A program made the position numbers and the translations under genes. A DNA stretch of 64,000 nucleotides from Myxococcaceae bacterium (lineage in GTDB: Bacteria; Myxococcota; Myxococcia; Myxococcales; Myxococcaceae), in the NCBI GenBank assembly GCA_003818285.1, contig RPRB01000006.1:2504-66503 (forward strand). Direction: 5' to 3'. The notes beneath the pieces were generated by a model that saw nothing but the letters and a program-made list of their open reading frames with translations, was not told where the DNA came from and made no database searches. Shown piece by piece: positions 10,270 to 13,308 of the stretch; the first letter of the stretch is position 1; the number at the start of each line of letters is the position of its first letter.

Positions 10270-10531
10270 ACTTCTCCGCCTCCATCTTTGCCCTGGCCTC
10301 CGGCGTCATCGCGTGGACCAGGAAGTTGCATCCGTCCTTCTTGATGTCGGTCACCACGCCGCACTTATCACAGGACCCCGTCTCAAAGAAAGTGTTCGCC
10401 TCCGACATGGTCAACCGCTGACCGCAGCCGGCGCAGGAGAACTTCTGGTACACGTCCGCCCCTCGAGCGATCGCATCGTTGGCTGCGATCACGACTTCGT
10501 CGAACGGGTGGTTGAGCTTATTCGCTGACAC
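10184..10531 (-). CDS. small zinc-ribbon protein (start uncertain)
   Basis: CAGCGQ ... CDKCG motifs. There is no ATG near the upstream stop, so I used the GTG at 10531. The 3' tail runs 86 nt into the next gene in a low-GC3 frame. Confidence 0.4.
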   Translation of the reverse strand: MSANKLNHPFDEVVIAANDAIARGADVYQKFSCAGCGQRLTMSEANTFFETGSCDKCGVVTDIKKDGCNFLVHAMTPEARAKMEAEKYAGGASGDVHGAEGEAEGGDEKGPAGQD

Positions 10532-11936
10532 TGGCTGGCTCCGTTGATTGGGGAACTCCCCGGGGAATTTTACGGGGAGTTCTGGGACTTCTTGTGCGAA
10601 CGCGGGGAGCATCCTCAGTCCTGGCGGCGCGGGGCGGCGGGGCGATGGGCTTCATCCCGTACTTGTCCACCCGGACGGCGCACCGACGGGAGAGCCAGCA
10701 GGCCCCGCAGGCCTTCTTCTGGTCCGTGTAGCCCACGTTCTGACAGTACCAGGTCTTGGCCTCGTCCACGTGCTCGTTGGGCTGATTGACCCGCTCGCCC
10801 GTCGTCTCGAACGGCTCCTTCTTGATGTGCGCCATGATCTGCTTCGAGACGTACGTGCAGAACTGGATGGGCATGGCCTTGCCGGTCTGCCGGACCATGT
10901 GCTGGTTCAGGTCGTGGCTCCACTCCCCGCGGTCGTTGAGGACGGTTCCGTAGAAGACGAAGTCGTCGGGGAAGCCCTGGATGCGGGCGCGCTCCCGGAC
11001 GGTGTAGGGCTCGCCCCGGTGGAAGTGGACCGAGGCGTTGCCGCCGGTCAGGACGTGCGCCGGTCCGTCCCAGTGGCCCTTGAGGAACCCGATCCGCTTG
11101 ACCATGGGGTTGTCGCCCCGCGCCGCCCGCTCCTTCTTCGACTCCTCGCTCGGGTGGTACTCCAGGGTGAAGCCGCCCTTCTTGTCGCGGAAGTACTCCT
11201 TCACCTCATCCCATGAGTTCTTCTTCCTGTACCTGCCGAGGTTCAGGGCGCGGAAGCAGTCCAGCGTCCCGTCGGCCGGATCGTGGTTTGGAAAGTTGCC
11301 GCGAGCCCTGGGCTCGGGCAGGTCGCCGATCACGTCCTTGACCTTCAGCGAGTGGACGGCCTCGCCGGGGATGAAGGTCCACTTCTCCTTCCGCAGCGCG
11401 CCCAGCATGAACATCCGGTCTCGCCCCTTCTGAACGTTGCCGTAGCCCCAGTTGCTGACCCACTCCGGGAAGAGGTCGTAGTCCGGCAGCAGCTCGTGAT
11501 ACTTCGCCATCGGGAACGCCATGAAGGACTTGGGCAGGTCGTCCATCACGAAGTACCGGGGCTTGAACTCCGCCACCAGCTCGCAGAAGAGCGGGATGTC
11601 TGCGGGGTCGAACATCTTCTCGCGCTGGCCGGGGTTGGCTCCGGACAGGCGGCTGAAGTTGCCGCACTCCGGGTGGCCGAGGGCGATGTCCGCGTTGCTG
11701 AACCTCTGGAACTCCTCCTCGGTCATCGTCGGCCGGTCGTTCGGGAAGAGCGCACCGGGGTAGTTGACCTCGAAGGTGTTCTGCCCGTGGGCGTCCTTCT
11801 CGTGGTAGTACTTCCGCCACTCCACGTTGCCTTCGATCTTGAACCCGGCTGCTCGGGCTCCGATCAGCATCGATCCGATGCCGCAGGTTATGCCGACGGC
11901 CCTGAGCTGGTCATCGGTCTTCGGTCGTCGAGCCAT
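10518..11936 (-). CDS. DNA cytosine-5 methyltransferase-like protein
   Basis: Motif I ITCGIGSM. Motif IV GHPECGNFS. Motif VI is FVMDDL instead of ENV. Motif VIII QKGRDR. Motif IX RERARIQGFPDDFVF. Motif X GKAMP. There is a Cys-rich C-terminal extension. Confidence 0.85.
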   Translation of the reverse strand: MARRPKTDDQLRAVGITCGIGSMLIGARAAGFKIEGNVEWRKYYHEKDAHGQNTFEVNYPGALFPNDRPTMTEEEFQRFSNADIALGHPECGNFSRLSGANPGQREKMFDPADIPLFCELVAEFKPRYFVMDDLPKSFMAFPMAKYHELLPDYDLFPEWVSNWGYGNVQKGRDRMFMLGALRKEKWTFIPGEAVHSLKVKDVIGDLPEPRARGNFPNHDPADGTLDCFRALNLGRYRKKNSWDEVKEYFRDKKGGFTLEYHPSEESKKERAARGDNPMVKRIGFLKGHWDGPAHVLTGGNASVHFHRGEPYTVRERARIQGFPDDFVFYGTVLNDRGEWSHDLNQHMVRQTGKAMPIQFCTYVSKQIMAHIKKEPFETTGERVNQPNEHVDEAKTWYCQNVGYTDQKKACGACWLSRRCAVRVDKYGMKPIAPPPRAARTEDAPRVRTRSPRTPRKIPRGVPQSTEPASVSE

Positions 11937-11937
11937 G

Positions 11938-13308
11938 TCAATACTGCTCCCCTGTGAAGATCATGACGAGCAGCTTACGATAGTCCTCGGGGGATCTGTC
12001 CACCTCCTTTGTCCGCAGGGGGATCTTGGGAGCTTCTGCGAGCCCCCTCGGCAGGTCTTCGCTGAACATCGCCCGCAGCAGCCCCTTGTCCCGACGGTCG
12101 ATCCAGGGCACGCCCATCGCCCCCTCGACCACGGACCGGGCCAGGAATGGGGACCTCAGCTCGATCGCGTGCCGCATCATCACCCGGTCGAGCCGGGGCA
12201 GGTGCCACATGACCATCTCCTGGAAGATGTCGCTGTACTGAGAGTCGTATCGCATCGCTCGGCCGTAGCCGCCGAAGCACTCGTCGGCCCCGTCCCCGGT
12301 CAGGACCACGGGCTCGCTGATCGCGTTGGCCAGCGCAATCTGGGGGATCAGGGAGCCGAGGTCGACGGGCTCCTGCATGTAGTGCAGGCCCTCCTCCAGG
12401 GTTCCGGCCTCCCAGCTAATCACCTTGGCCTCCGCATCGTTCTCGTTCATCAGGAGCTGCACCCTAGCAAGCTCCTGCGCGTTCGTCAGGTCGGTGGGGT
12501 GCTCGACGGGCTGGGCGTAGTAGGGGACGACCTGGTCGCTGAACCTGCGGGCCAGGGTGTAGACGATCGAGCTGTCGAGCCCGCCCGAGACGAGGCAGGC
12601 CACTGGCACGTCGGCCGACAGGACCCGCCGCTTCGTGGCCTTCACGATCTCCTCCCTGAGGTCGTCGTAGTTGCTGTGCCACTGGGGCTCCAGCTTGTCG
12701 ACGACCTGCGCGATGACTCGGCCCGACGGGAAGAGGCGCACGTACTCTCCGGGCAGGACCTTCTTGATCTCGTTGTAGGGCGTCCTCCGCTGGTCCGGGC
12801 AGTAGCCCCACTTGATGCAGGCGGACATGTAGACCTTGTCGAAGGTCACCGGACCGCGGGACTTCAGAGGGTCCAGCTCGGAGCAGGCGGCGACGATCTT
12901 GTCGGCTCGGTAGTAGAGCGGCTTCTGCGCCAGGTAGTCGACCAGGCAGTGGAGAGACTCCTCGTTGGAGTTCAAGGCGACGATCGACCAGAAGCCGTCG
13001 TACTCGGTGAAGCCCATCGGGCCCTGGTCGATCCACGTGTCCATCGCGATGGTGCTGTCGCAGTCGGCTCCGGGGAAGCGCTCCCGGAAGTCCAGGATCT
13101 CGCCGACGAACCCGACGGACCACCCCTTCCGGTGCATGGGCTGATCGTTCTCTGGCCCCAGGCCCACGATGGGCAGGCGGACGTGGCCGATCGCCCCCGT
13201 CCTGGTCTGGGCGATCCGGGGCTCACGCGTGCCCCTGTGCTTCATCATCTCCACCGCTGCCGCGATGTCCTCGCCCTTCGCGCCGAGCTCGGCGTACACT
13301 CCGCACAT
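11938..13308 (-). CDS. asparagine synthase (glutamine-hydrolysing)-like amidotransferase
   Basis: N-terminal MCG (Ntn class II GATase nucleophile) and the PP-loop LVSGGLDSS. Only a 1-nt gap to the MTase-like gene. Confidence 0.85.
   Translation of the reverse strand: MCGVYAELGAKGEDIAAAVEMMKHRGTREPRIAQTRTGAIGHVRLPIVGLGPENDQPMHRKGWSVGFVGEILDFRERFPGADCDSTIAMDTWIDQGPMGFTEYDGFWSIVALNSNEESLHCLVDYLAQKPLYYRADKIVAACSELDPLKSRGPVTFDKVYMSACIKWGYCPDQRRTPYNEIKKVLPGEYVRLFPSGRVIAQVVDKLEPQWHSNYDDLREEIVKATKRRVLSADVPVACLVSGGLDSSIVYTLARRFSDQVVPYYAQPVEHPTDLTNAQELARVQLLMNENDAEAKVISWEAGTLEEGLHYMQEPVDLGSLIPQIALANAISEPVVLTGDGADECFGGYGRAMRYDSQYSDIFQEMVMWHLPRLDRVMMRHAIELRSPFLARSVVEGAMGVPWIDRRDKGLLRAMFSEDLPRGLAEAPKIPLRTKEVDRSPEDYRKLLVMIFTGEQY

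Follow-up and report, generated by a model that had tools for sequence, protein, structure and literature searches.

Within the 64,000-nucleotide (nt) stretch formed by positions 2,504 to 66,503 of contig RPRB01000006.1 (assembly GCA_003818285.1, Myxococcaceae bacterium), hereafter the window, two tightly coupled genes encode an AsnB-like amidotransferase and a protein with the fold of a cytosine-C5 methyltransferase (C5-MTase). Our main finding is that both genes are accessories of a third one downstream, which encodes a thymidylate-synthase-like (TS-like) protein. This TS-like gene is the hub, because both genes consistently occur with it in about 135 related loci, and the AsnB-like and C5-MTase-like genes each accompany it, alone or together. 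We read the gene pair as the accessory end of a T4-like cytosine-replacement pathway, neither a self-contained methylase and amidase nor a CmoX/CmoY system, and give this reading an even chance of being right. Judged by their sequences, the two enzymes together probably make an undescribed hypermodified cytosine.

The window is a tailed-phage genome encoding portal, head protease, tape measure, tail fibres and primase. It comes from a freshwater-sediment metagenome and lies on one contig in a 502-contig assembly. A minus-strand gene run, an operon from 14434 down to 8456, carries the genes of the module, and the features of these genes located below lie on that strand. Its core consists of the AsnB-like glutamine-hydrolysing amidotransferase (456 residues, 11938..13308), the C5-MTase-fold protein with a rebuilt active site (472 residues, 10518..11936; PF00145, E 3e-17), the dCMP-type TS-fold enzyme (9412..10269; NCBIfam thy_syn_methano, E 0.005), a MazG/PRA-PH-type nucleoside triphosphate (NTP) pyrophosphatase that is a candidate dCTPase (8964..9425; PF01503, E 2e-13) and a dCMP deaminase (8456..9001; PF00383, E 4e-23). 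Read directly from the sequence, the junction between the first two genes is ...TAT TGA C ATG GCT..., with GGGGAG 10 nt 5' of the ATG. The TGA stop of the AsnB-like gene and the ATG of the C5-MTase-like gene are thus separated by a 1-nt spacer (11937..11937), just as a preliminary description of this DNA had stated.

The best solved relative of the TS-like protein by sequence is the CMP 5-hydroxymethylase MilA (5b6d, E 0.016). A hand alignment of the QRSCD...N177 segment places an Asp at the position of Asn177 in E. coli ThyA. From these sequence features, the protein is probably a dCMP hydroxymethylase. In T4, the pathway to 5-hydroxymethylcytosine (5hmC) comprises the dCTPase gp56, the dCMP hydroxymethylase gp42, the dCMP deaminase Cd, the deoxynucleoside monophosphate (dNMP) kinase gp1 and glucosyltransferases. 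The T4-type kit in the window is complete for the dCMP-type TS homologue, the dCTPase-like pyrophosphatase and the dCMP deaminase, which are also conserved in relatives, and no Tmk-like or dedicated dNMP kinase was found in the window. With T4 and with the 5hmC carbamoyltransferase phages (Yang et al., eLife 2021, PMC8670742), the window has in common the TS-fold enzyme whose base-reading position is Asp, the all-alpha NTP pyrophosphatase and the dCMP deaminase, and in each case a hypermodifying enzyme is encoded next to this kit; many relatives, though not the window, also share the Tmk-like kinase of T4. The decorating enzymes differ, being an AsnB-type amidotransferase and a C5-MTase-fold protein in the window instead of glycosyltransferases or carbamoyltransferases. 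To our knowledge, neither type of protein acts on 5hmC in nature. The core domains of the kit have experimental support, since the same domains (Thymidylat_synt, dCMP_cyt_deam_1, PRA-PH, dUTPase_2 and Thymidylate_kin) are listed as enriched in cytosine-modified phage contigs in supplement 2 of the MetaGPA study (PMC8670742). Asn_synthase and DNA_methylase are not among the domains listed in the part of that supplement covered here.

The hub position of the TS-like gene emerged from two sets of loci. For the first set, we anchored on the C5-MTase-like gene in 63 loci and scored the partners by hidden Markov models built from the loci. A TS-like gene was present in 53/63, an AsnB-like gene in 50/63 and a dCMP deaminase gene in 47/63, while MazG (19/63) and dUTPase_2 (25/63) appeared as one family or the other in the relatives. 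Most of the loci without a TS-like gene are cut by a contig edge. The co-occurrence of the gene pair in other phages, which the preliminary description had left for a survey, is therefore borne out by these 50 loci, in which the pair stands in two gene orders and all complete genes of the clade carry the rewired motifs described below. Counting the TS-like gene (TS) with the AsnB-like (AsnB) and C5-MTase-like (MT) genes, we found the orders AsnB>MT>TS, TS>MT>AsnB and MT>TS>AsnB in different lineages. Since the order varies between lineages, the linkage is more than inherited synteny. In six loci with intact flanks that have no AsnB-like gene, the C5-MTase-like gene sits tightly between the dCTPase-like and TS-like genes, in many cases overlapping them.

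For the second set, we anchored on the AsnB-like gene and scanned the best 80 of 415 IMG/VR relatives, which yielded 75 new loci. Of these, 70 carried a TS-like gene and about 15 a C5-MTase-like gene with Lys353. In 34/54 of the loci without a C5-MTase-like gene, the TS-like and AsnB-like genes are translationally coupled, with -1 to +7 nt between the TS-like stop and the AsnB start. The AsnB-like gene is thus mostly found with the TS-like gene and without the C5-MTase-like gene, which argues that the AsnB substrate is independent of the C5-MTase-like enzyme. The loci without a C5-MTase-like gene are T4-like: UvsX, PolB and a DnaB-like helicase are encoded there, and the actual thymidylate synthase is ThyX. 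We also observed a coupled trio of TS-like, AsnB-like and dCMP deaminase genes, without a C5-MTase-like gene, in loci L088-L141 (e.g. L093:9261-11154 and L097:800-3141). In these phages, a cytidylyltransferase-like gene (PF01467) often stands just upstream of the trio.

The AsnB-like protein belongs to the Pfam families GATase_6, GATase_7 and Asn_synthase (PF00733, E 5e-33). The N-terminal Met-Cys-Gly, with the N-terminal nucleophile (13300-13308), and the SGGLDS pyrophosphate loop (12571-12588) are conserved in about 50 homologues, and a further block, TGDGADECFGGY, lies at 12265-12300. Because these two motifs are conserved, the protein is very probably an active glutamine-dependent and ATP-dependent amidotransferase, as far as sequence can tell. 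It matches E. coli AsnB (1ct9) with E 3e-11, and it scores 159.6 bits against the NCBIfam model asn_synth_AEB (TIGR01536), under the cut-off of 267.1. The two-domain architecture, the N-terminal Cys nucleophile, the SGGLDS motif and the TGDGADE/FGGY block are common to both proteins. On the other hand, the window protein is about 100 residues shorter, the Glu of the SGEGSDE motif (E. coli Glu348) is replaced by Asp, and the window-type family is found only in phage contigs, beside TS-like genes.

The active site of the C5-MTase-like protein has been rebuilt. We placed its motifs by comparing the family profile with M.HaeIII and by aligning the protein with SpCmoX, a C5-MTase homologue of a Synechococcus phage. 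In motif I (GITCGIGS, 11871..11894), GxG is intact and the adenine-stacking Phe (F25 in SpCmoX) has become Thr17. Motif II with a family-specific block (NVEWRKYYH, 11802..11828) keeps E39 and W40, and within the block R41, Y43 and Y44 are invariant and H45 is almost so. The motif III Asp is not conserved in the AsnB-linked clade. Motif IV (GHPECGNFS, 11652..11678) aligns with GGPPCQSWS, so that Glu90 replaces the Pro ahead of the catalytic Cys91 and Gly replaces the Gln just past it. Motif VI (FVMDDLP, 11532..11552) aligns with FFLAENV and has DDL for ENV; across the AsnB-linked clade it reads DDL or DNL. Motif VIII (YGNVQKGRDR, 11415..11444) has the form Q-x-R-x-R, one residue longer than usual, with both arginines present; in M.HhaI these arginines grip the flipped cytosine. 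Motif IX is kept as RERARIQGFPDDF. In motif X (RQTGKAMPIQF, 10860..10892), RQTGKAMP aligns with KMIGNAVP and with ERVGRMVP of SpCmoX, placing Lys353 at the Asn position of ordinary C5-MTases (HaeIII), which is the position of Arg350 in SpCmoX. The alignments thus locate both substitutions named in the preliminary description, E-C for P-C and D-D-L for E-N-V. They also uphold its nucleophilic Cys, C91 being invariant. Its further statement that motifs I, VIII, IX and X are kept needs a correction: the motif VIII arginines, motif IX, the GxG of motif I and the shape of motif X are retained, but the motif X Asn, whose replacement is the most telling change, and the motif I Phe are not.

PC, ENV and GN are near-universal in C5-MTases. 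The family has at least 560 homologues, all metagenomic, and among the best 120 of them GHPEC occurs in 103/120, FVMDDLP in 97/120 and QTGKAMP in 110/120. C91, R172, R174 and K353 show no variation, even in homologues of only 37% identity. Because they are conserved across the homologues, the altered motifs are, on this sequence evidence, neither chance nor decay. Two homologues carry inteins directly ahead of the catalytic Cys (L013:5905-8256, GHPE|CFLGKTPVY...; L065:9947-12109, SHPE|CIVSGDVPVY...), and inteins are often placed at essential catalytic sites. Its invariance and these insertions indicate that the catalytic Cys matters. Separately, the database homologues P0014, P0051, P0089, P0105 and others contain Hint/intein and Vsr-like endonuclease domains. 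Another observation is a split, partial copy of the C5-MTase-like gene (L014:9926-10782) inside a 2.78-Mb contig of an alphaproteobacterial metagenome-assembled genome, with no AsnB-like or TS-like genes nearby. This copy may be a decayed prophage remnant and a hint at host range.

The substrate of the C5-MTase-like protein is likely DNA, as judged from sequence and a structural model. The two-domain C5-MTase fold with a target-recognition domain is present by Pfam, by the AlphaFold model (predicted local distance difference test score, pLDDT, 83.8; predicted template modelling score 0.84) and by Foldseek. All top Foldseek matches are DNA C5-MTases, with E down to 5e-17 and the target-recognition domain included (e.g. 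HaeIII, template modelling (TM) score 0.69, and 8YF3, TM 0.66). Two phages have tandem C5-MTase-like paralogues (L004:8806-11468 and L006:4422-6829), which share 85% identity in the core but 58% in the target-recognition domain in one case, and 60% but 33% in the other. This divergence suggests that the paralogues have two DNA specificities. Furthermore, the homologues P0098 and P0118 are fusions with an N6/N4 DNA methyltransferase domain (PF01555). The fold of the target-recognition domain, the diverged domains of the tandem paralogues and these fusions together argue for DNA. The Cys-rich C-terminal extension of the preliminary description is a four-Cys cluster, C-x12-C-x2-C-x6-C (residues 398-419, 10680..10745), which is probably a zinc knuckle. 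It is conserved in most of the AsnB-linked clade and missing from the L008-L012 subclade. A disordered Arg/Pro-rich tail follows (10557-10640; pLDDT <50 for residues 438-472), and the predicted knuckle and Arg-rich tail would be compatible with nucleic-acid binding.

The rebuilt active site differs between loci with and without an AsnB-like gene. All 51 complete C5-MTase-like genes in AsnB-carrying loci have E/D at position 90, T/I at 17 and K at 353. By contrast, the six AsnB-less loci with intact flanks have K/S at 90, Y/E at 17 and R/K/N at 353. Positions 39-45 form an E-W-R-x-Y-Y-H block in the AsnB-carrying loci, and Trp40 is missing from the AsnB-less ones. In a quick tree, the AsnB-linked genes fall on one side of a branch (92 in the Shimodaira-Hasegawa-like approximate likelihood ratio test), with the AsnB-less genes basal. 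The tree thus shows one origin, and we dropped the covariation of residue 90 with AsnB as independent statistical support. What remains is a single evolutionary event, preserved across numerous rearrangements, which suggests that the site beside the catalytic Cys reads something that differs by AsnB action. From the chemistry of the residues, we infer that a Glu and Lys pair would suit an amide or amine and a Lys and Arg pair a carboxylate or hydroxyl.

These results bear on the most conservative explanation, also named in the preliminary description, that the C5-MTase-like protein is an ordinary S-adenosylmethionine (SAM)-dependent DNA methyltransferase that makes 5-methylcytosine (5mC) against restriction and lies by chance beside an unrelated amidotransferase acting on nucleotides only. 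Its membership in PF00145, the catalytic Cys and both motif VIII arginines would fit, as would the fact that the AsnB-like gene is partnered primarily with the TS-like gene, not with the C5-MTase-like gene. However, PC, ENV and GN are all replaced, with the replacements conserved over hundreds of homologues, and residue 90 changes with the presence of AsnB. In addition, the C5-MTase-like gene sits among cytosine-replacement genes in all sampled lineages, often in translational coupling with them, and DNA with cytosines that already bear a 5-substituent offers a 5mC methylase little to act on. We therefore consider this explanation very improbable.

In the T4-like pathway that we propose instead, a 5-substituted dC (most likely 5-hydroxymethyl-dC) would take the place of dC at the nucleotide level, through the TS-like enzyme, MazG and the deaminase. 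This kit should fill C5 before DNA synthesis, so that little unmodified C5 would be left. With glutamine-derived ammonia and ATP, the AsnB-like enzyme would convert the 5-substituent, or a group on it, into a nitrogen-bearing amide or amine. The C5-MTase-fold protein would act on DNA after replication and in a sequence-specific manner, with the covalent Cys-C6 chemistry and the cytosine-holding arginines kept. It would attack C6 of already 5-substituted cytosines and exchange or extend the 5-substituent. The rebuilt pocket (Thr17, Glu90, Asp132-Asp133 and Lys353) would accommodate and further derivatise the 5-substituted cytosine, with Glu90 and Lys353 placed where an amide or amine group could be read.

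Such chemistry has precedents in vitro. Ordinary C5-MTases without SAM derivatise 5hmC and strip 5-substituents in vitro (PMC8829811). As proposed for the window protein, the attack of the Cys at C6 allows SAM-free exchange or removal of 5-substituents in the atypical C5-MTase reactions described in vitro (Klimasauskas laboratory, cited in PMC8829811; M.MpeI, PMC11347137). Bulky 5-substituents drive the active-site loop of C5-MTases outward (PMC11347137), and a natural enzyme for such bases would accordingly need a rebuilt motif IV loop. Normal methyltransferases carry out these in vitro reactions on the side, with thiols or aldehydes, whereas the role of the window protein is a proposal. We know of no natural enzyme dedicated to such side reactions. 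With more reserve than for the pathway as a whole, we put forward the tentative idea that the fold here is a natural enzyme that exchanges or extends the substituent on 5hmC, or on an AsnB-made amino or amide derivative, sequence-specifically and without methyl transfer.

The same in vitro chemistry allows another reading, in which the C5-MTase fold is a SAM-independent patching enzyme that, after replication, attaches a carbonyl compound such as formaldehyde or glyoxylate to C5 of escaped cytosines and thereby restores the same or a similar substituent, with Lys/Arg353 and residue 90 polarising the carbonyl. C5-MTases do add aldehydes to cytosine in vitro (cited in PMC8829811), the C5-MTase-like gene keeps its linkage to the TS-like gene whether AsnB is there or not, and the AsnB-linked clade no longer has two of the residues that contact adenine (the motif I Phe, now Thr17, and a conserved motif III Asp). 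The diverged target-recognition domains of the tandem paralogues indicate sequence-specific action, not global patching, and conservation extends to the motif II Glu-Trp, the pair that grips the ribose and the adenine of SAM. No natural patching enzyme of this type is known to us, and we regard this reading as improbable.

A further alternative comes from the Synechococcus phage S-B43, for which the CmoA/CmoX/CmoY mechanism was published in December 2025 (Yang et al., Nat Commun 2025, PMC12783734). There, carboxy-SAM comes from CmoA and 5-carboxymethylcytosine from the C5-MTase homologue CmoX (PDB 8YF3), and the AsnB-family ligase CmoY amidates this base with glycine (PMC12783734). The preliminary description had speculated on the transfer of a carboxyl-bearing group to cytosine C5 followed by its amidation, and this general idea has been shown for CmoX/CmoY (PMC12783734). 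For the window, a CmoX/CmoY-like route would take carboxy-SAM from the host, carboxymethylate either C5 or, in the fashion of CmoB, the hydroxyl of 5hmC, and let the AsnB-like enzyme amidate the product to a 5-carbamoylmethyl-type cytosine. Several features agree with it. Arg350 of SpCmoX binds the carboxymethyl group of carboxy-SAM (PMC12783734), and Lys353 aligns with it where HaeIII has Asn, so that in both systems a basic residue replaces the motif X Asn. The published criterion at this position is Arg (PMC12783734) and the window protein has Lys, but a single engineered Asn-to-Lys change (M.MpeI N374K) enabled the use of carboxy-SAM (PMC12783734; PMC8829811). Both systems are phage-borne, presumably shield DNA from host nucleases, and have an AsnB-superfamily ATP-dependent ligase gene directly upstream and tightly coupled (CmoY 4775-5590 and CmoX 5587-6705 of locus L018). 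Moreover, a large cluster of CmoX-linked ligases has a glutaminase domain (PMC12783734). Since E. coli CmoA alone sufficed for SpCmoX in vivo (PMC12783734), a phage copy of CmoA is not strictly required.

What counts against this route is first of all the lack of CmoA. The TIGR00740 model had no match in the window's assembly and none in 7 related viral genomes (92-100% complete, three with terminal repeats), and a phmmer search with SpCmoA found none in 3384 plus further open reading frames (ORFs) of the about 135 related loci; the same search recovers S-B43 CmoA with E 2.5e-34. Among 121 genomes of the putative host's class, none had CmoA above the cut-off, with one plausible CmoA-like match, and two relatives in named genome bins are alphaproteobacterial, with both genomes lacking CmoA; the host assignment is by binning only and weak, while the absence of CmoA from the phages is solid. 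The plausible match is an ORF in the putative host's family (G045, contig C555:55056-55727) that scores 135 bits, under the NCBIfam cut-off, compared with 116 bits for the proven phage CmoA. CmoA is rare, not strictly absent, in the putative host group.

The enzymes themselves also differ from those of S-B43. SPPC and ENV of CmoX are both missing, the window protein having GHPEC and DDL, and its family HPEC and DDL/DNL. It resembles 8YF3 (hhalign E 1e-8; Foldseek rank 10) no more closely than it does ordinary C5-MTases. SpCmoY has 271 residues and no glutaminase domain and uses glycine, while the window ligase has 456 residues with a glutaminase domain and shares about 20% identity with it over 213 residues (E 0.016). 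The AsnB-like gene mostly occurs without a C5-MTase-like gene, and the TS-like, dCTPase and deaminase kit, in which the window family is embedded and which PMC12783734 does not mention, should leave little free C5. Overall, the Lys at the Arg350 position speaks for the preliminary speculation, but the lack of CmoA and of SPPC/ENV and the presence of the TS-like kit speak against it in its original form, and we consider a CmoX/CmoY-like route unlikely.

Several points weigh against the T4-like pathway that we favour. AsnB-family enzymes are known to adenylate carboxylates, and 5-hydroxymethylcytosine has none. The motif X Lys is what one would expect for a carboxylate-bearing SAM analogue and favours the CmoX-like route, and the retained motif II Glu-Trp and motif I GxG may mean that a SAM-like cofactor is still used. 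The covariation of residue 90 with AsnB lies on a single branch and counts as one evolutionary event, not as repeated evidence. The TS-like product may be 5hm-dCMP or 5m-dCMP, and the replacement may be complete or partial. Finally, the data on the window are assembled contigs of a sediment metagenome, and no cultured phage carries the family. A megablast search of the region against cultured phages gave no match, and tblastn against them gave only four, at 24% identity. It is already known that phage cytosine hypermodification can be built on a TS-fold enzyme or on the C5-MTase fold. We found no paper on the C5-MTase-like family, and our literature search on natural carbamoylmethyl-cytosine or an AsnB-type enzyme in cytosine hypermodification returned only PMC12783734.

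The remaining genes of the run are small. The first one encodes a 150-residue protein (phrog_12275, 13982..14434) without a Pfam family. In 16 related loci, its slot is taken by a Tmk-like P-loop kinase (EGPDGSGKS). On inspection, the window protein and this kinase belong to two unrelated families. Next comes a small DUF6378 protein (13710..13982), whose match to PF19905 (E 1.5e-5) stays under the gathering score; it often accompanies the module, in about 30 related loci. Between the C5-MTase-like and TS-like genes, the ORF list contains a small CxxC...CxxC ORF (10184..10612), which shares 95 nt with the 3' end of the C5-MTase-like gene and 86 nt with the 5' end of the TS-like ORF. Because both ends overlap neighbours, its true start is uncertain; locus L001 has a homologue with 39% identity. 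An Amidoligase_2/GGCT operon elsewhere in the window (2144-6116) was rejected as a component of the pathway, since related loci do not conserve it next to the C5-MTase-like gene.

Phage DNA hypermodifications determine how restriction, CRISPR and other defences turn out, and epigenome sequencing has repeatedly gained tools from them. If the C5-MTase-like enzyme does exchange or extend the substituent on 5hmC, it would be the first natural counterpart of the methyltransferase-directed derivatisation of 5hmC in vitro. Besides glycosylation/carbamoylation and kinase-activated substitution, it would represent a third way of making hypermodified pyrimidines. If, on the other hand, a carboxylate-bearing SAM analogue is used without CmoA, this would point to an unknown cofactor source. 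The module is widespread in uncultured phages, with at least 560 C5-MTase-like homologues and 415 IMG/VR relatives of the AsnB-like protein and no cultured representative. If the enzyme works on modified cytosine, the best-studied DNA-modifying fold would have a second natural chemistry, and these phages would carry a new nitrogen-bearing base.

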